Shown: positions 1 to 17,390, counted from the first letter of the stretch. The stretch: 25,481 nucleotides of DNA from an uncultured Candidatus Cloacimonadota bacterium (GCA_964608295.1 CAZSOM010000001.1:1-25481), one strand, 5' to 3'. Notes: generated by a model from the letters alone, not told the origin. Numbers and translations are program-made.

Positions 1-2
1 CT

Positions 3-626
3 GTAATTCTGGGACTTCTTATCGCAATTACTTCCATGTTCTGGGGAAGAAGATTCTGTGGATACGTGTGTCCATTTGGTACAGCTCAGGAAATGATCTT
101 CAATTTAAATCCAAACTATAAAAAGAAAAAGCCGCTCAATCTTCCGGTTTGGCTGTACAGATTTCTTAATGTCTTAAAATATGTGATCATGCTCATCACC
201 ATTATAGCTGTTTTCCGTTCCGCCCAGTATGTTTACATGAAGTTTTGTCCGGTGCTGGCAGTATCTCATCCGCAGAATATCACACTTTATTCTTTAGCCA
301 CGTTGTTTGTGATCTTCATTATTGGATTCTTTATAAACAGATTCTGGTGCAGGTATTTATGCCCTTATGCTGCTTTGATGAATGTATTTCAATATATTGG
401 GAAATTACTACATATCAAAACCAGCAAAATTCATGTCAGTGAGGATCATTGTTTAGATTGCCGGTTATGTACAAAAGCCTGTCCAATGCAGATCGTGATC
501 CATGAAGTTAAACGGGTGGAAGATGTGAATTGCATTTTTTGTTTGAAATGCCAACAGAGCTGTCCGGTTGAGAATTGTATAGTTCTTGATACAATTAAAT
601 TGAAGAACAAGAAGAAATTGGATTAA
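3..626 (+). CDS. Membrane-bound 4Fe-4S-binding polyferredoxin (NapH/MauN/CcoG-like), 5'-truncated by the window edge
   Basis: The frame is open from base 3 (VILGLLIAITSM...), so ATG 36 is probably internal. It has two CxxxCP motifs (GRRFCGYVCPFG, RFWCRYLCPYA) between hydrophobic helices and a C-terminal 2x[4Fe-4S] domain (CLDCRLCTKACP, CIFCLKCQQSCP). Confidence 0.88.
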   Translation, partial: VILGLLIAITSMFWGRRFCGYVCPFGTAQEMIFNLNPNYKKKKPLNLPVWLYRFLNVLKYVIMLITIIAVFRSAQYVYMKFCPVLAVSHPQNITLYSLATLFVIFIIGFFINRFWCRYLCPYAALMNVFQYIGKLLHIKTSKIHVSEDHCLDCRLCTKACPMQIVIHEVKRVEDVNCIFCLKCQQSCPVENCIVLDTIKLKNKKKLD

Positions 627-666
627 TTATTGCGTACATAAATACAATTAATAAATGGAGATAAAA

Positions 667-1197
667 ATGAATAAAAGATTAATGATCTTGATCGCAATTT
701 TAAGTATAATTGCTTTCAATGTATACGCGCAGACAGAAGAGAAAATTGAATTAACTAAATATTCCGGTAAACTGAAACAGATAGCCGGAAGTTGGTTTTT
801 GAATACAGGCGAAGATGTGATAGAACTATCACTTGCACCCGATGAATTTCTGAAAGAGAATGAACTCGAACTTACTTCAAAAATGGAATTAATCTTGAAT
901 GGAATAATGCAGGAAGAGCAGCTGGTGGTTCATTCTATCATAATTGAAGAAACTGAACTCAAACTAAGAGATGAAGCAGGTGCACAGTTGTGGCAGATCA
1001 AACCATATTATGTGGAAGCTGATAAATGTATTGGTTGCCGGATGTGTGTTTCGCCTTGTCCTCAAGGTGCAATAACAATGGTAAAAGGTGTTGCTGTGAT
1101 CGATGCTGATAAATGTGATGGTGATGGTATTTGTGCGAATGGTGATGGCAAAAGATACAAAGGCTGTCCGGTAAATGCTATTAAACAAACTGAATAA
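667..1197 (+). CDS. Secreted protein with an N-terminal beta-rich (OB-fold-like) domain and a C-terminal ferredoxin domain
   Basis: GGAG at 657-660 favours ATG 667 over 655. Sec-type signal MNKRLMILIAILSIIAFNVYA|Q, followed by CIGCRMCVSPCP and an atypical CDGDGIC-x10-CP. Confidence 0.8.
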   Translation: MNKRLMILIAILSIIAFNVYAQTEEKIELTKYSGKLKQIAGSWFLNTGEDVIELSLAPDEFLKENELELTSKMELILNGIMQEEQLVVHSIIIEETELKLRDEAGAQLWQIKPYYVEADKCIGCRMCVSPCPQGAITMVKGVAVIDADKCDGDGICANGDGKRYKGCPVNAIKQTE

Positions 1198-1224
1198 ATT
1201 ATTATAAATTAGATTTGGGAAAAA

Positions 1225-3021
1225 ATGAATAAATTATTTTTATTACTTTTGCTCATCGGACTTTTTGTTATCAGTTGTACCGATACTCTTGATAAAACAA
1301 CTAATCTTAACAGCAATCCCCGTATTGAATATTCTTCCTGTACCAGTTGTTATGAATGTGTTGATCTTTTCAACTGTCCCGAGAATGCGATCAAGTTGGA
1401 TAATCGAACACAAACCATGTACATTGATGCAGATCTCTGCACGGGATGTATGGATTGTATCAATCTGTTTTCCTGCCCGGATGATGCGTTTACAATTGAT
1501 GTAGACAATATAAAACCTGCTCAGATCAATGATGTCATTGCAGCATCAGACTCAATTGGGAAGATGAATATTCAATTTACTGCAACAGGTGATGATTCAA
1601 CTACAGGTAGAGCTTTCAAGTATGAACTGGTGCTTAAAGATTCTAATAATCAGATCATTGAGAATGATTTTATCACACCTTTACCGCAAAATGCCGGCGC
1701 AATTGAGAATTGGGATTTGGAGAATTTACCGGAAGACGAACTGGTGACTCTGGAGATTGAAGCATTCGATGAACTTGATCAAGTTTCTCTTCCAGCAATA
1801 CAAGAAGTACAGATCTTGGGTGAGATAATTGATGAAGAACCTCCCTGCTCAATTGATGATATAGCAGTCAGCTCTATGTCTATGAATTCGTTCCAGGTAA
1901 ATTGGACTGCACCCGGAGATGATGGTGATCTTGGAATTTCAAGCTATTATATTGTTAAAGTTCACACAGAAAATATTAATGATTCAAATTGGGAAATAAT
2001 AGAGGAATATGAGCAGAATATAGTTCCTCAAGAAGCAGGAAATGAAGAAGTTATAATCATCGTAAATCTTGATCCGGTTACGGAATATTTTGTCGGGATT
2101 AAAGCAGTTGATGAAGTTGAAAATATCTCTCAGCTTTCTAATATAGCACAAGCGGCAACAACAGCTATTCCAGACGAAACTTCTCCTTCTGCAATTACGG
2201 ATCTGCAGGCTGATCCTACTGACGAGTTGATCGAACTAACATGGACTGCAACTGGTGATGATGGAGATGAAGGAACAGCTTATAATTATGAGATCAGGAT
2301 TTCACAATCGGTAATTACATCAGGCAATTGGAGTGATGCTGAACTTCTGGAAGGTGCTCCCTGGCCTTTGGAATCAGGTTCATCTCAGAATTATACTGTA
2401 GAAGATCTGCAACTTGGGATCACCTATTATTTTGCGATCAAAGCATTTGATGAAAGTGATAATGTCTCTCCGCTTTCGAATGTTCCCGATGCAAGCTTAA
2501 TCAACGATATTACCGCACCGGCAGATATTACAGATCTGGTAGTTTATGAAGGTAGTACATCTAATTTAAGCACAATAAAGATCATGTGGACTGCACCGGG
2601 TGATGATGGATCGCAAGGAATTGCAAATCATTATGAGATCAGGTATTCAACTTCTTTGATCACAGCATCAAACTGGGGAAATGCCACTATCTTCAATGAT
2701 CCACCAGTACCACAAAATGCCGGAACTTCCCAATATTGTTATGTTAATGTGCTGGAAGCTGCAACGATCTACTATTTTGCCATTAAAGCTTATGATGAGA
2801 ATGGTAACGTAAATCAGGTTTCTAATTCACCGGCAGGCAAAATAGTCTTTCAGATCAATACAGGAGCATGTCGCAATTGCAGTAACTGTATTTATGATTG
2901 TAATTATGATGCCATCCTGCAGGGTCCCGGTTATAAATATATAGATCCTGATCTATGCCAGGCTTGTGGAGATTGCACCTGTCCCTGGAATTTAATCTAT
3001 AAAGCAGTTGTTGCATATTAG
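1225..3021 (+). CDS. Lipoprotein: 2x[4Fe-4S] domain, four fibronectin type III repeats, 2x[4Fe-4S] domain
   Basis: Lipobox-like VIS|C18. N-terminal CTSCYEC-x5-CP and CTGCMDC-x5-CP. Four ~110-aa repeats with (W/F)TA(P/T)GDD and (Y)xxxIxAxDE motifs. C-terminal CRNCSNCIYDC and CQACGDCTCP. Confidence 0.85.
   Translation: MNKLFLLLLLIGLFVISCTDTLDKTTNLNSNPRIEYSSCTSCYECVDLFNCPENAIKLDNRTQTMYIDADLCTGCMDCINLFSCPDDAFTIDVDNIKPAQINDVIAASDSIGKMNIQFTATGDDSTTGRAFKYELVLKDSNNQIIENDFITPLPQNAGAIENWDLENLPEDELVTLEIEAFDELDQVSLPAIQEVQILGEIIDEEPPCSIDDIAVSSMSMNSFQVNWTAPGDDGDLGISSYYIVKVHTENINDSNWEIIEEYEQNIVPQEAGNEEVIIIVNLDPVTEYFVGIKAVDEVENISQLSNIAQAATTAIPDETSPSAITDLQADPTDELIELTWTATGDDGDEGTAYNYEIRISQSVITSGNWSDAELLEGAPWPLESGSSQNYTVEDLQLGITYYFAIKAFDESDNVSPLSNVPDASLINDITAPADITDLVVYEGSTSNLSTIKIMWTAPGDDGSQGIANHYEIRYSTSLITASNWGNATIFNDPPVPQNAGTSQYCYVNVLEAATIYYFAIKAYDENGNVNQVSNSPAGKIVFQINTGACRNCSNCIYDCNYDAILQGPGYKYIDPDLCQACGDCTCPWNLIYKAVVAY
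1504..2840 (+). repeat. Four tandem FN3-like protein repeats (about 1504-1830, 1831-2172, 2173-2505, 2506-2840)
   Basis: Each repeat starts D-x-x-x-P-x-x-I-x-D and contains FTATGDDS / WTAPGDDG / WTATGDDG / WTAPGDDG and a terminal I(E/K)A(F/V/Y)DE strand. Confidence 0.85.
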
Positions 3022-3090
3022 ATAATAAAACTAATCAATCTTGTTTGAGATAATCATGATCAAAATGAATATTAAAAATATTGAGGATAA

Positions 3091-3333
3091 ATGAAAAATA
3101 AAATAATAATAGTTATAATTATCTTAGCCGCAATTTCACTTTTCGCGATCTCCAAGAGTAATATTTTCGTAGAATCAAATTCTTGTATAGGTTGTGGAGA
3201 CTGTGTTAGTGTCTGTCCTGTAAATGCAATTGAAATAATTGATGGAAAAGCTGTTATCGATGCGGAATTATGTATAGATTGTGAAATCTGTATAACAAGT
3301 TGTACTTATAAAGCAATAAGGAAAAATAAATGA
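3091..3333 (+). CDS. Small 2x[4Fe-4S] ferredoxin with an N-terminal signal peptide or membrane anchor
   Basis: GAGGA RBS. MKNKIIIVIIILAAISLFA precedes CIGCGDCVSVCP and CIDCEICITSC. Confidence 0.88.
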   Translation: MKNKIIIVIIILAAISLFAISKSNIFVESNSCIGCGDCVSVCPVNAIEIIDGKAVIDAELCIDCEICITSCTYKAIRKNK

Positions 3334-3575
3334 AAAAAATAGGAATAATATTTTTCCTAATTGTGATCTTCGTAAGTATTATTAGCTGTGAAAAAGTGAG
3401 TAATCCTGAATATAATGTAGATAAAATAGCTTGTAATGCCTGTGGAAATTGTATTAATATCTGTCCGCAGGATGCAGTTGAAATCGGTGAAGACGGCAAG
3501 GCAATAATAGATCAAACTAAATGCAATCAGTGTGGTAAATGTATTACTGTCTGCCCGGAAGATGCTATCTATTAA
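3330..3575 (+). CDS. Small 2x[4Fe-4S] ferredoxin lipoprotein
   Basis: ATGA overlap with the previous gene. Signal MKKIGIIFFLIVIFVSIIS|C, then CNACGNCINICP and CNQCGKCITVCP. Confidence 0.88.
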   Translation: MKKIGIIFFLIVIFVSIISCEKVSNPEYNVDKIACNACGNCINICPQDAVEIGEDGKAIIDQTKCNQCGKCITVCPEDAIY

Positions 3576-3587
3576 AGTGTGAATGAT

Positions 3588-4466
3588 ATGAAGAAAATTT
3601 TAATAATACTTCTAATATCAATCTCATTTTCTCAAGGATTTTCTGAGGAAAAGCAAAATAATAACTTAGAAACAAAATCTAAAAACAAGTATTATAAAAT
3701 AGCCAGGTCATTATATCAAAAACCGTTTGGATCAACCTTATGTATACCATTTATCTGGTTAGGTGATTTAGCAGAAAATAAAAGAGTTAAATCTGATCTA
3801 TCCAACGAGCAAAAATTAGAAGATCCAGATCAACGAAGAAAATTCAACTTAACAAACTGGTCACAACTTTCTCTTAAATACTTCACTACGAATGCTGAGC
3901 ATGATATTGAAATAATCACTGGAGCTTCTCAAGATGCTGATAAAATAAAGGCTCAAGGTAAGTTTGGGCTGAATTATCAACATGAGGTAACAGGTAAGAT
4001 AAGTAAGAAACTTTCTTTTAATGTGAAGGATAATTTTTTCTTCTCTGAGAAAAGTCATGAGCGACGCAATTCATTTCTCACAAATGACCTGAAGCTAGGT
4101 TTTCTATATAATCATGAAACAACTTATCTTAACTTCAAATTGAATAATCGTTATTACGATCCAGATGAAACTAATTTCTTATCATTACCAGCCCTGGGGC
4201 AACATACACAACTAAAAATGGTTTCCAGTGCTGTTGTGCATTTAAAACAGAATTTTGGAAATCTGAACCTGAATGTTTATACGAACTTTAGGGATTTGCA
4301 GTATAGATATGTTGTTCCTATAGAAGAAGAGGATGATGAATATGACGCCCACAGAGCTAGAGATTATGATAGCTATACCGATTCTAAACTTTCTTATCCA
4401 ATCATGGATCATCTGAAGATTTTCGGGAGAGTATACTATAAAGACGAACTTAGGGGGAGGATTTGA
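3588..4466 (+). CDS. N-terminal part of a probable outer-membrane beta-barrel protein (frameshift-split)
   Basis: ATG 3588 gives signal peptide MKKILIILLISISFSQGFS. Alternating amphipathic strands follow (QGKFGLNYQHEV, TNDLKLGFLYN). The ORF ends just where the +1 frame becomes barrel-like. Confidence 0.6.
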   Translation: MKKILIILLISISFSQGFSEEKQNNNLETKSKNKYYKIARSLYQKPFGSTLCIPFIWLGDLAENKRVKSDLSNEQKLEDPDQRRKFNLTNWSQLSLKYFTTNAEHDIEIITGASQDADKIKAQGKFGLNYQHEVTGKISKKLSFNVKDNFFFSEKSHERRNSFLTNDLKLGFLYNHETTYLNFKLNNRYYDPDETNFLSLPALGQHTQLKMVSSAVVHLKQNFGNLNLNVYTNFRDLQYRYVVPIEEEDDEYDAHRARDYDSYTDSKLSYPIMDHLKIFGRVYYKDELRGRI

Positions 4467-4509
4467 ATATGACAATAACATTAATCTCTTCAGTTCTCTC
4501 AAAGCAAAA

Positions 4510-4992
4510 GTGCAATACTACAAAAGAATTTCTGCTAAGATCAATAATGAACAGGATCATAACCTGATCACACAATTGCGTTATTCAAGGAGATTCCGTA
4601 ATGGGATTTCCGGTTTTGTTTCCTATATAAACCGTTCTTGTTATGATGATGAAACTTCTCAAGTTTATCGTGTTTCTAATATGCTCAGAGTTCATACGAT
4701 GTATTCCTATGCACTTGAAAACCTTAATAACTCTTATGTCTTGGTTGGAATTAAATATAACCCTGAAAATGAAGGCTCGCTTGGTTTTATTGAACAAAAT
4801 CAGTATCTGGTCAAAGATATTTATTCAACTGTTGCTATAAAATATTCAGTTGATCTTTTTACTTCATACTCAGTGAAAATGGAATATTTCCTGAATTCAT
4901 TACAATCATTTTGGATCAAAGATGAATTTGTAGATTATTATAATATTCATACTCAGAATTTAATTTTCATTGGTTCTACAATAATATTTTAA
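4510..4992 (+). CDS. C-terminal part of the same beta-barrel (frame open from 4417; GTG 4510 is probably not a true start)
   Basis: The upstream in-frame sequence reads TNLGGGFEYDNNINLFSSLKAKVQYY. Amphipathic strands continue to a terminal Phe (GSTIIF*), typical of a BAM recognition signal. Confidence 0.6.
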   Translation: MQYYKRISAKINNEQDHNLITQLRYSRRFRNGISGFVSYINRSCYDDETSQVYRVSNMLRVHTMYSYALENLNNSYVLVGIKYNPENEGSLGFIEQNQYLVKDIYSTVAIKYSVDLFTSYSVKMEYFLNSLQSFWIKDEFVDYYNIHTQNLIFIGSTIIF

Positions 4993-5004
4993 AAAAAGGT
5001 AAAT

Positions 5005-5985
5005 ATGATAAAAACATTAATTGAAGGAGCAATTCTAGGGTTAACTACAGGAACAACATGCTTGATCACCTGTTCTCCTATCTACTTGCCTTATTTGATC
5101 TCTGAAGATAGAAAATTAGGTAAAAGCCTTTTGGCTGTTTTGGAGATCTCTGCTGGAAGGTTTATTTCCTATCTTGCTTTTGGCGCTATTGCTGGATATA
5201 CCGGAGCTCAAATTGCTTCAGTTAACCGTGAGTTGTTTACTTCGATTGCCTACATTTTACTCTCAGCTTATCTTGTGCTTTCTGCAGTAAGGACCAATAA
5301 AAAAACTAAAAGTTGTCATGTACCCAAAATGGCTAAATTCACTAAAAGCGGTTTTATCCTGGGGATTCTCACCGGTATAAATTTTTGTCCTTCCTTCTTG
5401 ATTGCACTCTCTAAAGCTGTAGATCTAGGTGGTGCTCTCAGTGGTATGATGCTGTTTATGGGATTTTTCTTTGGAACATCCATCTTCCTGCTGCCACTTG
5501 CCTTTATTGGTCAAATTTCTAAAGTCAGCAAAATGAAACTAATTGCCCAATATGCTTCAATTCTTGTTGCTATCTGGTTTACATTTGCTGGAGTTAAAGG
5601 GCTTATTCATTATCAGGAACATGTTAGATTGGAAGCTCAGCCAGCAAGATTAGTGGAAGCATTTAATCCAAATATACCGTTGGCTGTTGTTGCTTCAAAA
5701 GAAAATTCCGTTTATTTTACATCATTACAAGATTCCTTGAAGAAATACACACCGCAGGACGTTCATTATTTTCAATATCATAAATCAGTACTTGATTCTT
5801 TGAATAAATTTCAAGAAATTGTCTTGGTTATAGACTCCACAATTTTAAATGAGAGTTTCGATAACTATGATTACTTCCAGGTTGAACCGGATTATAATTT
5901 ACCCAGAATGCTAAAATTTATGAAATTCTATACATTCAAAACAAGAACTCATCTGCACTGGGAATTTATTGAAAAAGAAAAATAG
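5005..5985 (+). CDS. DsbD_2 / TauE-SafE-like (CcdA-like) membrane thiol protein with a C-terminal soluble extension
   Basis: About six hydrophobic helices with intramembrane Cys motifs GTTCLITCSP and GINFCP, GR motif in TM2, and a ~120-aa hydrophilic tail. Confidence 0.72.
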   Translation: MIKTLIEGAILGLTTGTTCLITCSPIYLPYLISEDRKLGKSLLAVLEISAGRFISYLAFGAIAGYTGAQIASVNRELFTSIAYILLSAYLVLSAVRTNKKTKSCHVPKMAKFTKSGFILGILTGINFCPSFLIALSKAVDLGGALSGMMLFMGFFFGTSIFLLPLAFIGQISKVSKMKLIAQYASILVAIWFTFAGVKGLIHYQEHVRLEAQPARLVEAFNPNIPLAVVASKENSVYFTSLQDSLKKYTPQDVHYFQYHKSVLDSLNKFQEIVLVIDSTILNESFDNYDYFQVEPDYNLPRMLKFMKFYTFKTRTHLHWEFIEKEK

Positions 5986-6030
5986 TACTTTCAGCATGGT
6001 TGTTAAAATCTCTATAAAATAGATATCTTT

Positions 6031-6082
6031 CCTGTCATCCTGAGCCCTTCGACAAGCTCAGGACAGGCTTAGTCGAAGGATG
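6031..6082. repeat. REP-like palindromic element, nested form (GTCATCCTGAGC / CCTTCGAC family)
   Basis: CCTTCGAC 6046-6053 is the inverted repeat of GTCGAAGG 6072-6079, and CCTGAGC 6039-6045 pairs with GCTCAGG 6056-6062. The same family occurs at 18626-18689. Confidence 0.75.
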
Positions 6083-6144
6083 GAATTATCTCTCATATTT
6101 CTTAGATACATTACTTCTATAGGATTAAATTTTTGCTTATCAAA

Positions 6145-6172
6145 TTGACAATTACACAAACAAAATTATTTC
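6145..6172 (+). promoter_or_regulatory. Putative sigma70-type promoter for the 6192 gene pair
   Basis: Perfect TTGACA at 6145-6150 upstream of RBS GAGGA. The -10 element is unclear. Confidence 0.4.
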
Positions 6173-6191
6173 TCTTCTCATGAGGAAAGTT

Positions 6192-7337
6192 ATGAAATTA
6201 AAATTCGTATTCTTACTAATTATGGGATTATCATTCTTAAATGCGAAACCAGTAGATAAATCTATAACGCTTGGAATTTTCTATCCCTGGTCCACAAACA
6301 AATCCAAACTGGAATCTACTAATTTTAACTTATCTCTTTTTCAAAATAGTGTAGGCAATGTTGAAGGTGCCAGCATTTCAGGATTCTCAGCAATCTGTAA
6401 TGGCAGTGTAAATGGAATTCAGGCATCACTTCTATATTCCCAGATTAATAAAGATCTACAGGGCATCTCGTTCTCCACTGTGAATGTGGTGAACCAAAGC
6501 ATTTTGGGTGTTCAAGCCGGGATTGCATTCAACCTTTTGGGAAAAAGTTTTTCCGGATATCAGGTCGTAGGAGCGATGAATTTTGTGGGTGGATATTTCA
6601 GGGGAATGCAACAGTCTGCTGTTTTTAATATTGTAGGAAGAGATTTTTACGGGCTGCAGTCAGCCGTAGTCGGGAACGTTGTAGGTGGTGGTTTTAAAGG
6701 CGCTCAGTTTGGAACAACTTTCAATTTTGTTGCACGTAAAATGTCTGGTCTCCAAACCGCAAGTTTGAATGTGTGCGCAGAGCTTAAGGGTGTTCAATTG
6801 GGCATTGGGAACATCACCCAGTTAAATCGGGGTTGGCAGATCGGATTGATGAATCTCGCGGAGCAACAAGAAGGTGTACCAATTGGACTTATTAATATTT
6901 CGGATGATGGAAATATCCGCTGGCAGAACTACATCAGTAATTTTGCTGGTTTTGTTACTGCTATCCGGTTTGAATCCAATAATTTTGTTTCCAGTTTGGA
7001 AATAGGAGCACCCAATTTAGAATCTGAAATTGAAGAATCTGTTTTGTTCGGGTTTCATTACGGTTATAGAGTTCCCTGGAAAAGATTAGGATTTGAGACC
7101 GATTTCGGTTTCTTCCATGTAATTTATGAACCCGATAATGAAGAGAGTGATATTCCCAATAGTTTTGCGCTACAACTGCGTTTTTCCTGTTCTTTACGTA
7201 TAACTGAGAATGTTTCAATTTTCGGAGGAATCGGGGGTTCCACCATGGCTGACTATCCTGATTTGGATGATGAGGACGCAGAAACAGTAACTTCGGAAGA
7301 TAGGCTACTCTATTTCTGTGGAATAAATCTATTTTGA
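6192..7337 (+). CDS. LA_2272-type surface-repeat protein (beta-solenoid) with a probable C-terminal beta-barrel
   Basis: GAGGA RBS favours ATG 6192. Signal peptide, then tandem 14-16-aa G-x-Q-x4/5-N repeats. The C-terminal amphipathic strands end CGINLF*. Confidence 0.75.
   Translation: MKLKFVFLLIMGLSFLNAKPVDKSITLGIFYPWSTNKSKLESTNFNLSLFQNSVGNVEGASISGFSAICNGSVNGIQASLLYSQINKDLQGISFSTVNVVNQSILGVQAGIAFNLLGKSFSGYQVVGAMNFVGGYFRGMQQSAVFNIVGRDFYGLQSAVVGNVVGGGFKGAQFGTTFNFVARKMSGLQTASLNVCAELKGVQLGIGNITQLNRGWQIGLMNLAEQQEGVPIGLINISDDGNIRWQNYISNFAGFVTAIRFESNNFVSSLEIGAPNLESEIEESVLFGFHYGYRVPWKRLGFETDFGFFHVIYEPDNEESDIPNSFALQLRFSCSLRITENVSIFGGIGGSTMADYPDLDDEDAETVTSEDRLLYFCGINLF
6507..6896 (+). repeat. G-x-Q-x4/5-N protein repeats (five of 16 aa, then 14-aa units)
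   Basis: GVQAGIAFNLLGKSFS / GYQVVGAMNFVGGYFR / GMQQSAVFNIVGRDFY / GLQSAVVGNVVGGGFK / GAQFGTTFNFVARKMS / GLQTASLNVCAELK / GVQLGIGNITQLNR / GWQIGLMNLAEQQE / GVPIGLIN. Confidence 0.85.
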
Positions 7338-7345
7338 GGTTACTT

Positions 7346-8722
7346 ATGATAAAATATATAATTTTCCTATTCCTTATCTCAATCAGTTTGATCCATGCTC
7401 AATCAGTTTCTACAGATTCTTTACAAACCAATTCTGCTGTAAAATGTTCGAATCCTAAGAATTTTAAACTAGCTGCCAGTGAAGCGATTGGCATAAATTT
7501 AGGGGTGTGGAGTGTTGATAACTATATTGCTAAAGCGGAATGGGCTAATATCAGTATAAAATCTGTTAAGCATAATTTGCAAAGCGGTTTTGTGTTTGAT
7601 GATAGTGACTTCTTGATGAACCAATTTCTACATCCTTATCATGGCAATCTCTACTTCAACTCTGCACGCAGTAACGGTTTCAATTTTTGGGAATCAACAC
7701 CATTCTCTCTGGCTGGAAGTTTCATGTGGGAAATGTTCATGGAGATCGAAGAACCTTCCAATAACGATTTGATAACAACAACCATGGGTGGTATCATGCT
7801 GGGTGAAATTACCTGGCGTGTTTCTTCTTTAATATTGGATGATTCCGCTACCGGATCGGAACGAACCTGGAGAGAAATTGGGGCTGGAGTTATTAATCCA
7901 ATACGCGGTATAAACAGACTATTCCAAGGTAGAACCAAAACAAAAAGTCGATTTCATAATCAGCAACGTGAAGATGTGTTGGCAGAGATTTCACTGGGTG
8001 GAAACACTGTAGGGGAAGGAATGAATATTTTTCAAGGTAAAGAATCGCCTCTTCTTAAAGCCCAGCTTGTTTATGGAACTCCTTTCAAAAATGAAAAACG
8101 TAAACCATTTGATTATTTTAATCTGCATTTAGGAATTAACCTGAAAGGTGTGGATACAATAACTAATTTCTATGGTGATGCCCTGCTTTGGGGCAGTAAT
8201 TTCAATTTTCAGGGAAACACGGGTGAGATGGCGCAAGACAATCTTTTTGGTGCTTTTCAACACTTTGATTATCTGGCAAATGATGTTTATAAGATAGCTG
8301 CCAGTGGAGTTGGGGGTGGAGTGATCTCTCGTTTTTCAGCCTACGAAGGAATGAACCTTTTCACATCCTGTCATGTTTCCGCCATCATCATGGGTGGCAG
8401 CAACTCTGTTTATGCACAACAGGCTCATCGCGATTACAATCTTGGACCAGGTTACAGTAGTAAATTTGAAGGTTGGTTGATTAACGAAAAATATGGAGAA
8501 ATGTATGTAGGTTATCTGCGTTACTGGCTTTATACTCTAAGTGGGGCAGATGGTACTGAAGCAATTGAGATTTCTAATTACCGGGTGGATACACCGATCA
8601 GTAAACACTTCAAGCTAGGTTTGGAGTATTTATATTATTTAAGAAATGGTAAATATGACAATTACAAAGATGTTGTAGCCAAAAACAACGAACTGCGAAG
8701 CTTTATTTCTTATCGATTTTAA
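7346..8722 (+). CDS. DUF3943-domain outer-membrane protein
   Basis: GAGGT RBS favours ATG 7346. Signal peptide, motif NQFLHPYHG-x-LYFNSARSNG...WEMFME-x-EEPS-x-NDLITTT-x-GG-x2-LGE, and a beta-barrel-like C-terminus ending SFISYRF*. Confidence 0.8.
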   Translation: MIKYIIFLFLISISLIHAQSVSTDSLQTNSAVKCSNPKNFKLAASEAIGINLGVWSVDNYIAKAEWANISIKSVKHNLQSGFVFDDSDFLMNQFLHPYHGNLYFNSARSNGFNFWESTPFSLAGSFMWEMFMEIEEPSNNDLITTTMGGIMLGEITWRVSSLILDDSATGSERTWREIGAGVINPIRGINRLFQGRTKTKSRFHNQQREDVLAEISLGGNTVGEGMNIFQGKESPLLKAQLVYGTPFKNEKRKPFDYFNLHLGINLKGVDTITNFYGDALLWGSNFNFQGNTGEMAQDNLFGAFQHFDYLANDVYKIAASGVGGGVISRFSAYEGMNLFTSCHVSAIIMGGSNSVYAQQAHRDYNLGPGYSSKFEGWLINEKYGEMYVGYLRYWLYTLSGADGTEAIEISNYRVDTPISKHFKLGLEYLYYLRNGKYDNYKDVVAKNNELRSFISYRF

Positions 8723-8738: not shown

Positions 8739-8826
8739 TTTTGAACAATTTAATAAATAATTCAAAAAAGGTGTTGACACATTTTCTCTATCTAAATTTT
8801 TGAACTTATGAATGAAAAGTTAAAAT
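8739..8826 (+). promoter_or_regulatory. Promoter and operator region of efflux operon 1 (TTGACA 8774-8779; two 29-bp pseudo-palindromes)
   Basis: TTTTGAAC-N13-ATTCAAAA at 8739-8767 and TTTTGAAC-N13-GTTAAAAT at 8798-8826. Homologous to 15335-15421. Confidence 0.6.
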
Positions 8827-8840
8827 TAGGAGGAAGAGAT

Positions 8841-9410
8841 ATGAATCGTCGTGAAGAAATCTTGGCAGCGGCTCAAAATGCCTTCCAGAAATTTGGGATC
8901 GAAAAGATCACACTGGAGGATATTGCCGGAGAATGCGGAATCCAGAAGACAGCACTTTACTATTACTTTAAGAGTAAAGACGAGATTTTGTCAGAAATGA
9001 TTCTGCTAAAGATCAGAGAGTATCAAACCGACATAGTGGAAGCACTAACAGCAGCAGAAGACGTGAAGGAAAAACTTCGAACCTACATGACAATGAAGAT
9101 CAACATGATGCGTGAGAATATATCCTTTATGCGTTTATTCGAGAAAGAAAGATTGCCGAATAAAGCAAAAAATTTCCTGGAGAAGCACAGAAAGGACATT
9201 ATGGAAACGGATTTTTGTCTTATTAAAGACATAATCGAGCAGGGGATCAGAAATCACCGGGTTTCTTTTAAATTGAATGATTCTCTGGTTTTGATGATCT
9301 TGGGTGTAACTTACGGTACTTTTATTGGACGTTTCTTGGAAAATGAAGATTGGGATATCGACGAAATGATCAATACATCTATCGAAGTTATCTTCAACGG
9401 GATTAGATAA
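8841..9410 (+). CDS. TetR/AcrR-family transcriptional regulator (copy 1)
   Basis: AGGAGG at 8828-8833 favours ATG 8841. N-terminal HTH ITLEDIAGECGIQKTALYYYFKSKDEI. Confidence 0.95.
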   Translation: MNRREEILAAAQNAFQKFGIEKITLEDIAGECGIQKTALYYYFKSKDEILSEMILLKIREYQTDIVEALTAAEDVKEKLRTYMTMKINMMRENISFMRLFEKERLPNKAKNFLEKHRKDIMETDFCLIKDIIEQGIRNHRVSFKLNDSLVLMILGVTYGTFIGRFLENEDWDIDEMINTSIEVIFNGIR

Positions 9411-9421
9411 ACGGAGGTTTT

Positions 9422-10837
9422 ATGAAGAAATTTAACAATATATCTGTATTAATGTGTTTAGCTTTTATGTTGTTGCTATCTCCGGCAGCAGCGACCCACC
9501 ACAAGTTATCTCTGGAAGAATGCAAACAGCTGGTCTTGGAAAATAATAAGACTATTGCAGCTGTACAGGAAGAAGCAGATGCGGCAAAATGTAATAAAAA
9601 CTCTGTCTTTACCAATTTTCTTCCCCAGGTAAAAGCAATAGGAAATTACACACACTTGCATCAGGAAGTAGAGTATGATTTGAATGATACTTTTACTGAT
9701 TTATTAAATGGAATGCAGGAATTTAGCAATTTTGCGGGTCTTGGTGTAGAAAACGATATTTTCTATCAAACACTTTCAGCTATGTATGCCAATGGATTGC
9801 TGGATGAATCTCTGGCTCTTCAGCTTCTACCGAAAGATAACTATGCAATCAGCGTTGTTTTATCACAACCAGTTTTTACAGGTGGAAAGATCATTGAGCA
9901 ATACAGGATCAGTAATTCTCAGGAAAAAATAAGTCAAGCTCAGCAGGTCTTAACACGTCAGGAAGTTTTGCAGCGTACGGAAGAGTTGTATTGGCAGACT
10001 GTAAGCCTGAAAGAAAAAGTAGAATTAGCCAACCAATATAAAACCACGGTTAATGTACATTGGCAGGATCTGAAAAACTTGGAAGCTGAAGGTATTATTA
10101 CTAAAAGTGATCTGCTTAGAGTGGAAGTAATGTACAACAAAGCAGAACTGCAGCTGCAGAGAGCACAGAACGGTTTAACTTTGGTCAAGCTTGCTTTGAA
10201 GCAGGTTATCGGATTACCTTTAAATGAAGAATTAGAAATCTCTGATGATAGAATTGAAAATGATTCTTCCTGGGAAAATTCTTCAGAATCAGGTGACCGA
10301 CCTGAACTTCTTATGCTCCAGCAGGGCATAAATATCAGTAAAAGTCTGAAACGTATAAACCTGGCACGCTATTGCCCGAATATAATGTTTAATGCCGGTT
10401 ACAACTGGTTGAATCCCAATCCCTACGATAATTTTACAGAAGAATTCGGTGAAGATTGGTCGGTGGGAGTTAGTTTCGAGATGGATATTTTTGGTTGGAA
10501 CAAACGAGGCTTTGATTATAGAGCTAGTAAACATCTGCAACGCGCTGCCGAAAAGAGATATCAAGAAACTGAGGAAATGATAGATCTGGAAATTGAGCAA
10601 TGTAAATTCAAAGTGGCAGAAAGTAGAACCAGGATAAACATGTGCAAAAAGAATTATGCCAAAGCAGATGAAAATTTAAAAGAAACAACTAATCGCAATC
10701 ACGAAGGTCTGGTTAGCAGTTCAGATGTTCTTGATGCCCAGGTTTTGTGGCAGGAAGCATATTCCAGTCTGATCGACGCAAAGTCAGAATTTAAAATTGA
10801 ACAGGTAAGTCTAAAAAAAGCAATGGGAATTTTATAA
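9422..10837 (+). CDS. TolC-family outer-membrane efflux channel (copy 1)
   Basis: Signal peptide, LSLEEC-x3-V-x-ENN start, QPVFTGGK and EGLVSSSDVLDAQ motifs, and its position in a TetR-OMF-MFP-RND operon. Confidence 0.93.
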   Translation: MKKFNNISVLMCLAFMLLLSPAAATHHKLSLEECKQLVLENNKTIAAVQEEADAAKCNKNSVFTNFLPQVKAIGNYTHLHQEVEYDLNDTFTDLLNGMQEFSNFAGLGVENDIFYQTLSAMYANGLLDESLALQLLPKDNYAISVVLSQPVFTGGKIIEQYRISNSQEKISQAQQVLTRQEVLQRTEELYWQTVSLKEKVELANQYKTTVNVHWQDLKNLEAEGIITKSDLLRVEVMYNKAELQLQRAQNGLTLVKLALKQVIGLPLNEELEISDDRIENDSSWENSSESGDRPELLMLQQGINISKSLKRINLARYCPNIMFNAGYNWLNPNPYDNFTEEFGEDWSVGVSFEMDIFGWNKRGFDYRASKHLQRAAEKRYQETEEMIDLEIEQCKFKVAESRTRINMCKKNYAKADENLKETTNRNHEGLVSSSDVLDAQVLWQEAYSSLIDAKSEFKIEQVSLKKAMGIL

Positions 10838-10847
10838 GGAGAATACA

Positions 10848-11882
10848 ATGAAAAAAAATCTATTGATGATAATGTTGGTAAGCTTTGCCGTATGGAGCTG
10901 CAGTAATAAAGAAATAACAGAAACTCAGGAACAGGTAATACCAGTGAAAGTGGTTAAAAGCCAGTTAAAAACATTTGAACCTGTAATGGAATTTGCCGGT
11001 ACTCTAATGCCTAATCAGGAAACAAATTTGGGAGCCATTTTACCTGGTAGAGTAGAAGAAATCTATTACAATGAAGGAGATATAGTAGAAGAAGGCGCAC
11101 TTCTTGTTGAACTTTCCGGAGAATTGCTTGCCCAGGCAGAAATCGAATATAAAACCTACGAAAAAGATTATTTGCGTATGAAACGTCTTTTCGAAAAAGG
11201 ATCGATACCGGAAATAGATTATGACCATGTAAAAGCCCAGTATGAGGCAAAATACGAACGCTATAAACTTTTGAAAAAAAACACTCAAATCAGGGCACCA
11301 TTCAGTGGTGTTATTGCTCAGCATCTGGTGAATAAAGGAGAAAATTATATGTTTGTTCCGGCTTTAAAGATGGGTTATTCTCATGCTCCAGGTGTGATCA
11401 GGCTGATGCAGATCGATCCCGTTAAAGTACGCATTGAAGTGAATGAAGAAATGCTAGCCGCAATCTGGACTGGTCAGTTGGCAGAAGTGTCATTTGATGC
11501 AGTAGCAGGAAAAACATTTACGGGTAAGATCACTCTTATTCAGCCTTTTATCGATCAGATGAGCCATACTTCACAAGTGGAAATTACCATTGCTAATCCC
11601 AATGGAATTCTCAAACCTGGTATGTTCAGCCGTGTCAAAATTGCTCAGAGATCCCAGCAAGCTGTTTTTGTACCTTTACAAAGCATTATTCACCTGTCCG
11701 GAACAGCTCGTGATTATGTGATTACTATAGAATCCGACAAACCGGAGAGAATTGAAATAGAAAAACTCTACACTATCGATAATGAAGTTGCTGTAAAAGG
11801 TATAAATGAAAATATATTCGTCATTACAGCTGGGAAAAGCCGTGTTGATGAAGATAGTAAGATCAAGATTATCGAAGATTAG
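10848..11882 (+). CDS. RND periplasmic adaptor (membrane fusion protein) lipoprotein (copy 1)
   Basis: Lipobox VWS|C, lipoyl half-motifs GRVEEIYYNEGDIVEEG and IRAPFSGVI, and LKPGMF. Confidence 0.94.
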   Translation: MKKNLLMIMLVSFAVWSCSNKEITETQEQVIPVKVVKSQLKTFEPVMEFAGTLMPNQETNLGAILPGRVEEIYYNEGDIVEEGALLVELSGELLAQAEIEYKTYEKDYLRMKRLFEKGSIPEIDYDHVKAQYEAKYERYKLLKKNTQIRAPFSGVIAQHLVNKGENYMFVPALKMGYSHAPGVIRLMQIDPVKVRIEVNEEMLAAIWTGQLAEVSFDAVAGKTFTGKITLIQPFIDQMSHTSQVEITIANPNGILKPGMFSRVKIAQRSQQAVFVPLQSIIHLSGTARDYVITIESDKPERIEIEKLYTIDNEVAVKGINENIFVITAGKSRVDEDSKIKIIED

Positions 11883-11890
11883 GAGAAATT

Positions 11891-14800
11891 ATGCAACTTC
11901 CTAAAATAGCAGTAAAAAGACCTATTTCCACGATTATGTTTTTCCTGGCAATTCTGTTGTTGGGTCTGGTTTCGTTAAAAATGCTTCCGCTTGATGTTAT
12001 GCCGGATATGGAACTTCCTACATTAACCGTTATTACGGTTTTTCCGGGAGCATCAGCAGAAGAAGTGGAACAGCAGGTTACAAAAGAATTGGAAGGAACA
12101 CTTTCAGGTGCCGAAAACCTGAAAAAACTAACTTCAACCTCCAAGGAAAATGTTTCATTTGTATCTATGCAGTACAGCTGGGGAGCCGATATTACCGAGG
12201 CTGCTAATAATGCCCGTGATCTATTGGAACTGTCTAAAAGGCATTTACCAAATGATGCTCACGATCCCATAATCTACAAAATCAATAGCAGCATGATGCC
12301 GGTGATTGTAATAGGAATATCAGCAGAAGAAAATTTCTACGGGCTGGAGAATATCATCGAAGATAAAATCACCACCAGACTGCGTAAGATTGAAGGCGTG
12401 GGTTCGGTGCTTTCATTAGGTTACCCAGAGCGTGAGATCAAGATCAATGTGGATCCACAGAAATTATATGCCTACAAGATATCCATGCAGATGATCTCTA
12501 CGATATTACAAGCAGAAAACATAACCATCCCGGGTGGTAGTATCAAGGTCGGCAGCAGTGAATTTACTGTGAAAGTACCTGGAGAATTTTCCAATATTGA
12601 AGAAATAAAAGAGATCGTTCTAATAAATTTCAACGGCAGGATCGTACGGGTTGCTGATATAGCTGAGGTACAAGACGGTTTCAAGGAAAAGGATGAGTTT
12701 GCTCATACCAGAGACAGTCGTTCAGCTGTCGTAATGATCCAGAAACAGAGTGGTACTAATACTCTGAAAGTAGTCAATGCACTACGAAACGAATTGAAAC
12801 TGATAGAGAATACACTTCCGGAAGATGTAGAATTAAACGAAGTAATAGCAACAGACGAACTTGTTACAGAATCAATTCGTAATCTTTCCAGTACTCTCTG
12901 GTATGCCTTCATCTTTGTAATCTTAGTAGTTTTTGCTTTCCTGCGTGAATGGAGATCTTCACTCATCATCTCACTTACCATACCCTTTTCTCTGATCAGT
13001 GCATTTATCCTGATGTTCCTGGCTGGATATTCCATCAATATCTTTTCCTTGATGGCATTGGTTATTGCGATCGGAATGGTTGTGGATAATGCGATTGTAG
13101 TAATGGAAAACATAACCCAGCATATAGAAAAAGGAACCCGTCCCGACCAGGCAGCAATTTATGGAACCAGCGAAATGGGAACGGCAATTGTTGCTTCTAC
13201 AGCTACTACGCTCATGGTTTTTCTGCCCATGGTGTTTATGGGTGGAATTGTAGGAGTAATGTTTAAGCAGCTGGCTATTATTACAACTGTAACTCTTTTC
13301 GCTTCTTTGATCGCAGCAATGAGTTTAACTCCTATGCTGGCTTCAAGGTTCATCAGACCGCACAGTAAAGAGAAGACAAAACATGGTCGGTTGTTCCAGG
13401 TTACAGAAAGACTATTTACTTCGGTGGAAAACCGCTACAAGAAAATTTTGATTTGGTCTGTGACAAATAGGAAACTGGTATATGTTATTGTAATTGTAAT
13501 ATTTGGAGTAACTATGTGGATGGGTACTACTCTGGGAACAGATTATATTGCCGAATTTGATGCTGGAGATGTGAGTACTGTATTCAAATTGGAAGTAGGA
13601 TCTACAGCCGAGGAGACAGACAGGGTTGCACAAAATGTTAAGCAGATCTTTATTGAAGAGATACCAGAAATGAATCCCAGCAGTTTGATAACAGTTGCCG
13701 GGCAAACAGAGAGTGGTTTACTCTCTATGGTAGGTTTTTCCGAAGGTAAAAATGTGAGTACTGTTCTGTGTCATCTTTCCCTTTGCAACGAACGTGACCG
13801 AAGTGCAAAAGAGATTGCTGATGTGATCAGGAAAAGAATGACGGAAATTCCTGAAATTGTTGATTATCATGTAACAGGTGGCAGTATTCTCTCGGCTGGA
13901 TTATTGGGAAATCTGAAACCGATTGAAATTGAAATTTCGGGAGATGATCTCGTTCAGATTAATGCTATAGCTGATACCCTGGAAAAATATCTACAAAAAG
14001 AAAACGGATTCAAAGATGTACAAACAACCGTTGATCCAGGGAAACTGGAGATCCAGATCATCGTTGATAAGAAGAAAGCTTCTCAACTGGCTTTAAATAC
14101 AGCTATGATCGGTTTGCAGATTCGTCAGAGTATTTTCGGTACGGAATCAGGTGAGTTTACCGAAAATGGAGAAGATTATGATATTACCCTGAGATATAAT
14201 CCGGAAAGCAGAAATGATATAAATAAGCTTCATAATATAACTCTCACAAACCTGACAGGGAATCAGATAAAATTAGAACAGGTTGCCCGAATCGTTGAAG
14301 ACAGTGGTGTACTGGAAATTGAACATAAAGCTCAGCAACGTATTGTGTATGTGAAATCTGAAGTTGAGGATCTTTCACTGGGAGATGCAGCTCAGAGAGC
14401 AGAAGAGATCATTTCGCAGATAGATAAACCGGAAAATATTGATATTCGCTTGGGTGGTCAGGTTACGGAACAGCAGGATTCATTTGGAGATCTCTATCTG
14501 ATCCTGATTTTAGGTATTCTTCTGGTTTACATGATCATGGCTGCACAGTTTGAGTCATTTAAGGATCCTTTCATTATCATGTTTGCTGTTCCTTTTACAT
14601 TTATCGGCATTATCTGGGCTTTTAAACTTACCGGCTTGACTCTGAGTGTTACAACCTTTATCGGTATGATTATGTTGATGGGAATTGTGGTGAATAATGG
14701 TATCGTTCTGGTAACTTACACGAACCTATTACGTGCTAGAGGGAATACACTTGTTAAAGCAGTAACTGATGCAGGTCATTCCAGGCTTCGTCCGGTTTTG

Positions 14801-14992
14801 ATGACTTCACTGACTACAATTCTGGCGATGGTGCCGATGGCTTTGAGTAAAGGAATGGGTAAAGAAATGTATTCACCGCTAGGTGTAACTTTGATCGGAG
14901 GACTGCTGGTTTCCACCTTGATCACGCTGATTTTAGTACCGGTTATCTACACCAGCTTGAATCGTAAATCTCTAGTAGAGGAGGAAAAATAA
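11891..14992 (+). CDS. RND efflux permease, AcrB/AcrD/AcrF (HAE1-like) family (copy 1)
   Basis: 1033 aa with two large periplasmic domains. TM4 GMVVDNAIVVMENI, TM10 GIVVNNGI, TM11 RLRPVLMTS. Confidence 0.96.
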   Translation: MQLPKIAVKRPISTIMFFLAILLLGLVSLKMLPLDVMPDMELPTLTVITVFPGASAEEVEQQVTKELEGTLSGAENLKKLTSTSKENVSFVSMQYSWGADITEAANNARDLLELSKRHLPNDAHDPIIYKINSSMMPVIVIGISAEENFYGLENIIEDKITTRLRKIEGVGSVLSLGYPEREIKINVDPQKLYAYKISMQMISTILQAENITIPGGSIKVGSSEFTVKVPGEFSNIEEIKEIVLINFNGRIVRVADIAEVQDGFKEKDEFAHTRDSRSAVVMIQKQSGTNTLKVVNALRNELKLIENTLPEDVELNEVIATDELVTESIRNLSSTLWYAFIFVILVVFAFLREWRSSLIISLTIPFSLISAFILMFLAGYSINIFSLMALVIAIGMVVDNAIVVMENITQHIEKGTRPDQAAIYGTSEMGTAIVASTATTLMVFLPMVFMGGIVGVMFKQLAIITTVTLFASLIAAMSLTPMLASRFIRPHSKEKTKHGRLFQVTERLFTSVENRYKKILIWSVTNRKLVYVIVIVIFGVTMWMGTTLGTDYIAEFDAGDVSTVFKLEVGSTAEETDRVAQNVKQIFIEEIPEMNPSSLITVAGQTESGLLSMVGFSEGKNVSTVLCHLSLCNERDRSAKEIADVIRKRMTEIPEIVDYHVTGGSILSAGLLGNLKPIEIEISGDDLVQINAIADTLEKYLQKENGFKDVQTTVDPGKLEIQIIVDKKKASQLALNTAMIGLQIRQSIFGTESGEFTENGEDYDITLRYNPESRNDINKLHNITLTNLTGNQIKLEQVARIVEDSGVLEIEHKAQQRIVYVKSEVEDLSLGDAAQRAEEIISQIDKPENIDIRLGGQVTEQQDSFGDLYLILILGILLVYMIMAAQFESFKDPFIIMFAVPFTFIGIIWAFKLTGLTLSVTTFIGMIMLMGIVVNNGIVLVTYTNLLRARGNTLVKAVTDAGHSRLRPVLMTSLTTILAMVPMALSKGMGKEMYSPLGVTLIGGLLVSTLITLILVPVIYTSLNRKSLVEEEK

Positions 14993-15294
14993 TGAACATG
15001 ATCTATATAACCTGTGATATTGCCGTTCTTGAGCAGGTCAGGTTTCTAATTGAGAAATTGAATATTAATAGTTATCAGATGATTGAAGAGATCCTGGGAA
15101 AAGCACCCCTGGGAATTCCTCATCTGAATAACGATGTGTGGCCGGGTCATAACTCAATTATTATGGCTCAGCTGCAGGATGATAAAACTGCAGAATTGAA
15201 AAAGGAACTGCAGGGATTCAATCAGAATGTTATGAATAAAAATGAGTTGATAACCTTTGCCTGCTGGTCGCTGGCAGAATACTTCTCTCAATAG
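14992..15294 (+). CDS. Small P-II-like transporter-associated protein (PG0541-like)
   Basis: TAATG overlap with the RND stop. 100 aa with a ferredoxin-like alpha/beta pattern and motif G-x5-PH-x4-WP-x2-NS as recalled for this family. Confidence 0.7.
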   Translation: MNMIYITCDIAVLEQVRFLIEKLNINSYQMIEEILGKAPLGIPHLNNDVWPGHNSIIMAQLQDDKTAELKKELQGFNQNVMNKNELITFACWSLAEYFSQ

Positions 15295-15301
15295 ATGATT
15301 C

Positions 15302-15329
15302 GAGAGCCGGTATTTCCGGCTCTCTTTTT
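15302..15329 (+). terminator. Rho-independent terminator of efflux operon 1
   Basis: Perfect 9-bp stem GAGAGCCGG / CCGGCTCTC, loop TATTT, followed by TTTTT. Confidence 0.85.
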
Positions 15330-15334
15330 CCATA

Positions 15335-15421: not shown

Positions 15422-15436
15422 TATAAAGGAGGAAAC

Positions 15437-16006: not shown

Positions 16007-16017
16007 AGAGGAATTTA

Positions 16018-17385: not shown

Positions 17386-17390
17386 ATTAT

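Follow-up and report, generated by a model that had tools for sequence, protein, structure and literature searches.

Organization of the operon

We analyzed a stretch of 25,481 nucleotides (GCA_964608295.1, CAZSOM010000001.1:1-25481), hereafter the window, which constitutes the first 25.5 kb of contig C1 in a metagenome-assembled genome of 450 contigs that is 73% complete (G000). The host is an uncultured marine fermenting bacterium of the phylum Cloacimonadota. Related loci come from Candidatus Cloacimonadota, including Ca. Tenebribacter, and near-identical DNA is present in marine and marine-sediment metagenomes. Positions 3-5985 of the window form a single operon of seven genes, all on the + strand and separated by gaps of -4 to 69 nt, in which an exported, cysteine-invariant pair of small ferredoxin proteins is tightly coupled to an outer-membrane barrel. 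We tentatively infer that this pair forms an Fe-S electron relay. The composition of the operon fits no described system. Metabolic reconstructions present Cloacimonadota as fermenters based on Rnf and ferredoxin and do not mention the operon (PMC8542988; PMC7382037). A full-text literature search likewise returned no description of it, in line with a first-pass annotation of this DNA, which knew of no system with such a composition.

The first gene (3..626, +) encodes a NapH-like membrane polyferredoxin (Pfam Fer4_5, 4e-17, plus Fer4) whose 5' end is lost at the contig start. It is followed by gene 2 (g2; 655..1197, +), encoding a secreted protein with a C-terminal ferredoxin domain (Fer4 families) and a SPase I-type signal, and by gene 3 (g3; 1225..3021, +), encoding a lipoprotein with ferredoxin ends (Fer4 families) and fibronectin type III (FN3) repeats (Pfam fn3, 8e-19; lipobox VIS↓C). 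Two mini-ferredoxins come next: f4 (3091..3333, +; Pfam Fer4, 1e-13) carries a Sec signal and f5 (3330..3575, +; Fer4 family) is a lipoprotein with the lipobox IIS↓C. The outer-membrane beta-barrel gene (3579..4992, +) is split here into two open reading frames (ORFs), 3579-4466 and 4510-4992, and was recognized from the model of an intact homologue. The last gene (5005..5985, +) encodes a CcdA-like DsbD_2 membrane protein of the LysE superfamily (Pfam DsbD_2, 3.5e-19, 69.9 bits against a cut-off of 24.9). The two mini-ferredoxins and the barrel are the core members. The operon encodes eleven CxxCxxC motifs and one CxxDxxC (C154/D157/C160 of gene 2), twelve in total, of which two lie on the NapH-like protein and ten on the four signal-bearing proteins; no CxxCH motif was found in any operon ORF. 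The first-pass annotation had given the same gene orientation, spacing and motif numbers, and both the ORF listing and the motif count agree with it. Scanning positions 1-6400 for promoters and terminators did not yield more sites than expected by chance.

Distribution and synteny in Cloacimonadota

We retrieved 52 loci from many genera around matches to a profile of the barrel. Such matches occur in 96 of 232 Cloacimonadota genomes, including 65 of the 151 genomes of high quality, and in 29 of 66 genera. An ~80-amino-acid (aa) Sec-exported ferredoxin (f4), an ~80-aa lipoprotein ferredoxin (f5) and the barrel are encoded in this order in 51 of the 52 loci, and the exception begins at a contig end. 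The barrel and f5 genes often overlap, and in the window f5 is translationally coupled to f4 via a 4-nt overlap. The DsbD_2 gene directly follows the barrel in 31/52 loci and g2-like genes are present in 19/52, while a NapH-like gene lies inside or beside the operon in a minority of loci. The accessory genes are variable and include g2-like genes, extra exported ferredoxin proteins of ~178 aa, and g3-like FN3 lipoproteins ranging from 178 to 1720 aa. The co-occurrence of six or seven families as a block, which the first-pass annotation had put forward as a check, therefore holds only in the window's genus and a few others; elsewhere the core consists of the two mini-ferredoxins and the barrel, usually with DsbD_2. 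Synteny is strong inside the phylum and the barrel co-occurs with the ferredoxin genes, so the grouping survives on both counts. These results indicate that the operon is an envelope module distributed phylum-wide in Cloacimonadota, with f4, f5 and the barrel as its invariant core.

The DsbD_2 profile matched 94/232 genomes, of which 61 also have a barrel match, and the union of both covers 129/232 genomes. Most DsbD_2 loci with no match to the barrel profile have an ORF of 376-429 aa in the slot between f5 and DsbD_2, with a signal peptide and an aromatic C-terminus; from these features, the slot ORFs look like divergent barrels. Relatives at 43-49% identity on two metagenome contigs (L105 and L106) show the same arrangement of several genes for small Fer4 proteins, an ORF the size of a barrel gene, and DsbD_2, to which L105 adds an extracytosolic FMN_bind protein and L106 a Fer4_5 protein; both additions are known parts of published extracytosolic electron-transfer systems. 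We do not claim the slot ORFs of these two contigs as barrel homologues: hhalign with the barrel profile gave no similarity or a weak C-terminal one, and position alone is shared. The flanks on L105 (4855-5637 and 9031-12465) encode a DUF2271 protein with faint matches to sorting tails of the type IX secretion system, the FMN_bind protein, an ArsR-type regulator and an HMA P-type ATPase.

Other neighbours were noted in particular lineages. In one genus, an ~830-aa Fe-S flavoprotein resembling a GltD/PreA fusion (Pyr_redox_2, Fer4_20, DHO_dh and Fer4) is encoded directly upstream of the g2-like gene on the same strand (L035 11840-14332, - strand; also L062, L075, L100 and L101). It could serve the system as an NAD(P)H-linked partner in the cytoplasm, or simply be an unrelated neighbour. 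In another locus (L039 of genome G182, 10710-13431), the usual DsbD_2 slot after the barrel holds a gene for a Fur-family regulator together with feoB, and that genus has no DsbD_2. Fur-box-like sequences upstream of 57 operons matched no better than shuffled sequences (means of 7.3 and 7.5 mismatches, respectively), and we therefore claim no iron regulation. A palindrome-like site (GATAATGTTAAATAATATC in L033) is found ~155 nt upstream of the g2-like gene in L033, L041, L064 and L065. In these four genomes of one genus it lies at offsets 195-197, and it differs from the E. coli Fur box at 4-6 positions. A regulator could bind here, or the site could simply reflect shared ancestry.

Exported ferredoxin proteins

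The two mini-ferredoxins consist of little more than an export signal and a ferredoxin core. In f4, the Sec signal ends in an A-x-S/T cleavage-like site that is followed by a 55-aa core of the 2x[4Fe-4S] type. In f5, a core of the same type starts ~13 residues past the lipid cysteine. All eight cluster-ligand cysteines are invariant among 28 distinct f4 sequences, with canonical CxxCxxCxxxC(P) spacing. Among 28 f5 sequences, seven of the eight are invariant and the remaining position (ligand 2) is Asp in a single sequence; the lipobox cysteine is invariant in all 28. The ferredoxin signature of f4 and f5 extends beyond the cysteines to the prolines of CxxCxxCxxxCP, a D/E-A-I turn and the 55-aa length. 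Both proteins thus have the two CxxCxxCxxxC(P) motifs in an ~55-aa core that define clostridial-type 2x[4Fe-4S] ferredoxins, and each core is predicted to bind two [4Fe-4S] clusters. The nearest solved relatives of f5 are the repeat units of three polyferredoxins that act as electron wires, MvhB, FwdF and RnfB. The +2 residue of f5 is Asp or Glu in many sequences and Glu in the window. In E. coli, an Asp at +2 retains lipoproteins in the inner membrane, although this rule is not universal.

The two larger proteins carry additional domains. Gene 2 encodes an N-terminal domain of ~90 aa with no assigned fold, followed by the C-terminal ferredoxin domain with a CxxCxxCxxxCP and a CxxDxxC...CP motif; the SPase I-type signal is kept in five orthologues. 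An ESM Atlas search with gene 2 returned its own cluster or scores of ~0.6 that we treat as leads only. In gene 3, a two-motif ferredoxin domain at the N-terminus is followed by FN3 repeats and then by a two-motif ferredoxin-like domain at the C-terminus. The g3 relatives span 178 to 1720 aa and vary in the number of FN3 repeats, which in the long members is seen from repeated alignments; the lipobox is conserved. Proteins of up to 1720 aa would be too long for the periplasm, which suggests surface display. Since an FN3 rod cannot conduct electrons, g3 would serve as a tethered shuttle or a binding arm.

Twin-arginine translocation (Tat) is the usual route for extracytoplasmic Fe-S proteins. 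Across 31 genomes of the order, including 20 of high quality, no TatC match exceeded the cut-off, and no TatA was found in five genomes. The twin-arginine motif S/T-R-R-x-F-L-K is present in no signal of the window clade; a distant g3 homologue of L008 starts with MSRRKK. Within G000, the four operon proteins are the only ORFs with Fer4 motifs that have a signal-like N-terminus. Because the signals are of Sec type and no Tat system was found, the clusters, if carried, would be received after Sec export. We know of no route that places Fe-S clusters into Sec-exported proteins. The signal peptides and the invariant lipobox cysteine argue that the domains are exported, as the first-pass annotation had proposed, whereas their Fe-S content is predicted.

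The outer-membrane barrel

Pfam gave no match for either of the two barrel ORFs. In ten related loci (L001-L010) the barrel is a single ORF of 409-482 aa, and it is intact in all relatives examined (395-506 aa). The family comprises 44 clusters at 90% identity, and its named members all come from Cloacimonadota and are labelled "hypothetical". For the intact 482-aa barrel of L007, an AlphaFold2 model built from 38 sequences has 20 strands, a pLDDT of ~90 in the barrel and no plug, with the first ~70 mature residues disordered. The earlier call of a beta-barrel is therefore supported by an intact homologue, even though the gene is split in this assembly. Foldseek matched the model only to generic barrels of TonB-dependent receptors, Occ proteins and porins (TM-score <0.5), and the ESM Atlas returned generic porin or BBP2_2 clusters. 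The structure of MtrB, a barrel of 26 strands, is absent from the best Foldseek matches, and the protein does not qualify as an MtrB/PioB-type barrel. The model describes a plug-less barrel of about 20 strands that appears to belong to no specific family.

The break in the window copy is a 32-bp deletion between copies of the 11-bp direct repeat AGACGAACTTA (4442-4452). Contigs from two independent sediment runs (X2 and X3; ~95% identical) have 21 extra letters and a second copy of AGACGAACTTA at the break, which excludes a single-base slip. Inserting the 32 nt yields one ORF of 481 aa that is collinear with the L007 protein without gaps. A contig of the probable source run (X1) carries the same deletion, and the deletion is therefore probably real in this population. 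The barrel gene is probably a pseudogene or a split gene here, and the deletion may have left this strain with an inactive system.

Membrane proteins and candidate electron sources

About 66 residues of the NapH-like protein are missing from the window; relatives are 261-273 aa long and are encoded by the first gene of the operon, which in L007 is preceded by a divergently transcribed AIPR gene. The NapH-like protein has the architecture of NapH: four transmembrane (TM) helices, two CX3CP motifs, and a C-terminal domain with two CxxCxxCxxxC motifs. The motif positions are invariant in eight sequences (C90/C94-P, C187/C191-P, C224/227/231-P and C248/251/254/258). Based on the positive-inside rule, the CX3CP motifs and the two-cluster domain are predicted to lie on the cytoplasmic side, which matches NapH. 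The alignment of these proteins (alignment A3; L007 7409-8230) further reveals invariant residues His44, Cys47, Cys53 and Cys153 in two predicted periplasmic loops. The first three fall in the missing N-terminus of the window copy, which retains the cysteine of its KFCP motif. It is possible that these four residues constitute an outward-facing metal or cluster site; to our knowledge, no such site is known for NapH.

Despite this architecture, the protein scores far under the cut-offs of the characterized families: 65.0 bits for the window fragment and 74.3 for the full-length L007 protein against 213 for NapH/MauN (TIGR02163), 55.8-57.5 bits against 234 for PRK09477, and 27-36 bits against 316.7 for CcoG/RdxA/FixG (TIGR02745), for which no cytochrome c maturation genes were found either. 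NapH draws on a quinol pool and has a NapG-type partner exported by Tat, whereas the partners here bear Sec-type signals. Neither MenA, MqnA nor cytochrome bd was found in five genomes. The sole UbiA-family match in G000 is a gene resembling digeranylgeranylglyceryl phosphate (DGGGP) synthase in an ether-lipid cluster. We accordingly rejected a role as quinol dehydrogenase, and with it, for this protein, the quinol exchange that the first-pass annotation had cited for NapH-type proteins. NapH-like genes are found in 177/232 genomes of the phylum, mostly elsewhere in the genome. At NapH-like loci outside the operon, a signal- or anchor-bearing ferredoxin protein is encoded directly next in 5/8 cases, a pairing that resembles NapGH.

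The DsbD_2 protein has six TM helices and a C-terminal alpha/beta domain of ~110 aa that lacks cysteines (AlphaFold2 model, pLDDT 87.6). It belongs to the DsbD/CcdA family by its Pfam score and by the cysteines of TM1 and TM4: C23-x-P25 (TM1) and C128-P129 (TM4) are invariant in 35 sequences, as is Cys19 in TM1. Loop charges suggest an N-out/C-out topology, which would place the C-terminal domain in the periplasm. Searching the model against the PDB with Foldseek gave no match at E <=0.001; the C-terminal domain weakly resembles flavodoxin/CheY-like alpha/beta folds and returned its own cluster or leads of ~0.6 from the ESM Atlas. We found no candidate client, whether thioredoxin-like or linked to cytochrome c maturation: no Ccs or Ccm genes were detected, and the C-terminal domain has neither cysteines nor a match to thioredoxin. 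Distant relatives that consist of the TM domain only (~204 aa) adjoin CcoG/NapH-like Fer4_5 proteins on unrelated contigs. The contigs of three further distant DsbD_2 proteins (P0187, P0208 and P0129) were too short to reveal a gene context.

The cytochrome c maturation proteins CcsA and CcmC were not found in five genomes, and no ORF with two or more CxxCH motifs is present in G000, which is 73% complete. With no Tat system, cytochrome c maturation or multihaem proteins found, any envelope conduit in these bacteria could only be haem-free.

Comparison with known systems

The operon shares features with several envelope systems. As in the porin-cytochrome conduits (MtrCAB of Shewanella, PioAB/MtoAB and Pcc of Geobacter), genes for a periplasmic redox protein, a lipoprotein redox protein and a barrel stand side by side (51/52 loci), with an inner-membrane electron-entry protein nearby. 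In contrast to these conduits, the operon has no multihaem CxxCH proteins: its carriers are 55-aa ferredoxins of the 2x[4Fe-4S] type, its barrel has ~20 strands and generic matches only, and no link to quinol was found. The best analogy would equate f4 with MtrA, f5 with MtrC (or with an LptE-like plug) and the barrel with MtrB. As in the operon, NapGH, MauMN and NosGH pair extracytoplasmic ferredoxin-domain proteins with a membrane protein of four TM helices that carries two CX3CP motifs and, on the cytoplasmic side, a 2x[4Fe-4S] domain. The operon differs from them in its score (65-74 bits against 213), in partners with Sec or lipoprotein rather than Tat signals, and in lacking nitrate reductase, N2O reductase, methylamine dehydrogenase and detectable quinone synthesis genes.

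Meheust et al. (2021, eLife, PMC8238504) described extracytosolic electron-transfer systems assembled from NapH-like, DsbD and FMN-binding building blocks. The modular design of an envelope redox system, with a NapH-like (PF12801) or DsbD-family membrane protein and secreted or lipidated carriers, is common to these systems and to our operon, and the distant cluster L105 has FMN_bind and DUF2271 genes. The flavinylation systems are defined by ApbE and FMN-binding carriers, whereas the window operon has neither and relies on ferredoxin domains and a barrel. The paper gives no account of exported ferredoxins or a barrel; a term search of its text met "ferredoxin" in other contexts only and "Cloacimon" nowhere.

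Like the CcdA/DsbD thiol-disulfide transporters, the last protein of the operon has a DsbD_2 score, six TM helices, Cys/Pro in TM1 and TM4, and a predicted N-out/C-out topology. It differs by its putative periplasmic alpha/beta domain, which has no cysteine or fold match, by the invariant Cys19, and in that no cytochrome c maturation client or thioredoxin-like partner was found for it. Finally, a gene for a small lipoprotein beside that of a large plug-less barrel recalls LptD-LptE and RcsF-OmpA and would suggest a lipoprotein plug or a threaded complex; this is a purely architectural analogy, with no relation in sequence or fold.

Proposed mechanism and alternative explanations

We tentatively favour an electron relay, or conduit, across the envelope as the best available explanation, although we hold it at somewhat less than an even chance. 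The ferredoxin proteins would be exported across the inner membrane in unfolded form by Sec, given that no Tat system was found in these genomes, and the DsbD_2 protein would keep their cysteines reduced. Once outside the cytoplasm, they would pick up [4Fe-4S] clusters in an anoxic environment where Fe(II) and sulfide are probably plentiful. Reduced ferredoxin of the cytoplasm, and not quinol, would supply the NapH-like protein with electrons, which it would pass to the periplasmic ferredoxins. The f4/f5 pair may dock in or under the barrel, as MtrA and LptE do in theirs, and carry electrons through the outer membrane. By estimate, two stacked two-cluster ferredoxins would be long enough to span it. 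At the surface, the g3 lipoprotein would take up the electrons and deliver them to an external acceptor or partner. A more specific proposal is that Cloacimonadota assemble [4Fe-4S] clusters after Sec export and without Tat, aided by DsbD_2, and thereby build a porin-ferredoxin complex: a haem-free, quinone-independent wire that moves low-potential electrons of fermentation to minerals, sulfur or syntrophic partners. In this full form we find the proposal doubtful.

Of the electron conduit proposed in the first-pass annotation, the haem-free, exported and syntenic components are supported, whereas its quinol-dehydrogenase part is not. Several observations weigh against a conduit altogether. 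The clusters in the exported domains and the passage of electrons across the outer membrane are both putative, and we are aware of no precedent for extracytoplasmic cluster binding in proteins that do not use Tat. The step of electron entry at the inner membrane is weakened by the usual location of NapH-like genes away from the operon and by the chemistry of the DsbD family, whose members transfer thiol-disulfide equivalents and do not deliver single electrons to Fe-S clusters. Two genera (g9 and g40) retain the f4-f5-barrel triad entirely without DsbD_2. The barrel has no specific likeness to MtrB and its gene is disrupted in this genome. In g3, the two ferredoxin ends are separated by an FN3 rod, which insulates one from the other. 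Lastly, the Fur gene and feoB that follow the barrel in one locus hint at iron uptake.

In one alternative, the module acquires iron or FeS. Exported apo-ferredoxin domains would capture Fe or preformed FeS from sulfidic water or minerals, with the g3 rod as a mineral-binding arm, the barrel as an entry channel, and DsbD_2 or FeoB as inward iron transporters; electron flow, if any, would serve reductive dissolution alone. Export of apo-proteins through Sec suits such a capture, and no unknown system of periplasmic assembly is needed. The replacement of DsbD_2 by Fur and FeoB in L039, in a genus without DsbD_2, fits this explanation, as do the HMA-type P-type ATPases that adjoin the cluster in L033 and L105. 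DsbD_2 itself belongs to the LysE superfamily, which includes metal transporters, and is grouped by Pfam with exporter or metal-related families. We nonetheless consider iron acquisition unlikely: metal-related neighbours were found in only three of ~70 tabulated loci (L039, L033 and L105), the Fur-box-like sequences are at the level of shuffled sequences, the ferredoxin cores are nearest to the polyferredoxins of electron wires, and the NapH-like, FMN_bind and Fer4_5 partners indicate redox work.

Alternatively, the redox chemistry could be confined to the periplasm, where the ferredoxins would reduce a substrate imported by the barrel (polysulfide or S0, selenite, another metalloid or an oxidant in need of detoxification) with no electrons crossing the outer membrane. 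All evidence for the conduit that concerns steps up to the periplasm applies here too. The generic, porin-like character of the barrel would suit the import of a substrate, and the Asp or Glu at +2 of f5 would agree with inner-membrane retention if the E. coli Asp+2 rule, which is not universal, applied. This explanation is improbable given that the conserved core includes no catalytic reductase subunit (molybdopterin, haem or flavin) and that g3 relatives of up to 1720 aa far exceed the width of the periplasm, which points to surface display.

It is also conceivable that no Fe-S clusters are involved. The Cys-rich domains would then bind Zn, Cu, Ni, Co or Cd, or form disulfides, and would act in metal buffering, detoxification or envelope structure, with DsbD_2 as a thiol reductant or metal transporter. 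Such a function would remove the difficulty that no cluster route into Sec-exported proteins is known. DsbD_2 relatives elsewhere adjoin CcoG-like Fer4_5 proteins, and RND efflux operons and metal ATPases neighbour some loci. CcoG is a cupric reductase (PMC8267372, citing Marckmann 2019). What makes this explanation hard to accept is that the mini-ferredoxins retain the complete ferredoxin signature (CxxCxxCxxxCP, the D/E-A-I turn and 55 aa) and not the cysteines alone, and that the occasional Cys-to-Asp change at ligand 2 is a known variation of Fe-S proteins; we regard it as a poor candidate. Finally, the hydrophobic N-termini might anchor the proteins in the membrane with their ferredoxin domains still on the cytoplasmic side, as part of an ordinary membrane-attached redox complex with the barrel as a mere neighbour, which would dissolve the conflict with the Tat rule but is highly improbable since Lys/Arg before the hydrophobic stretch predicts an N-in, C-out orientation, since the lipobox, small residues at -1 and an invariant Cys are found in 28/28 f5 sequences and in the g3 family, and since f5 and the barrel are closely linked in 51/52 loci, where their genes often overlap.

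If the exported domains do bind clusters, the Tat rule for extracytoplasmic Fe-S proteins will need to be amended. If the envelope conduit exists, trans-outer-membrane conduits are no longer confined to multihaem cytochromes, and direct interspecies electron transfer by cytochrome-free bacteria becomes testable. The operon would also offer a molecular handle on how the abundant uncultured Cloacimonadota of anoxic sediments and digesters dispose of reductant or gain iron. Even under FeS capture or metal buffering, it represents a conserved and entirely uncharacterized module in more than half of the genomes of the phylum.

Genes flanking the operon and other observations

Downstream of the operon, the window encodes a protein with LA_2272-type surface repeats (6180-7337) and a DUF3943 protein (7334-8722). 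These genes adjoin the operon in no related locus, and we therefore do not consider them members of the system. They are followed by two consecutive efflux operons (8808-21792), each with TetR, TolC-like, membrane-fusion and RND genes. A 100-aa ORF with no Pfam match (14992-15294) lies after the first of them and overlaps the RND stop codon. Elsewhere in G000, contig C138 (L104, 1468-3934) carries an ether-lipid gene set of archaeal type in a bacterial genome. The set consists of a farnesyl/geranylgeranyl diphosphate (FPP/GGPP) synthase, the DGGGP-synthase-like UbiA prenyltransferase and a geranylgeranylglyceryl phosphate (GGGP) synthase (274.8 bits, cut-off 247), and it agrees with known reports of archaeal-type ether-lipid genes in bacteria of the Fibrobacteres-Chlorobi-Bacteroidetes (FCB) group.

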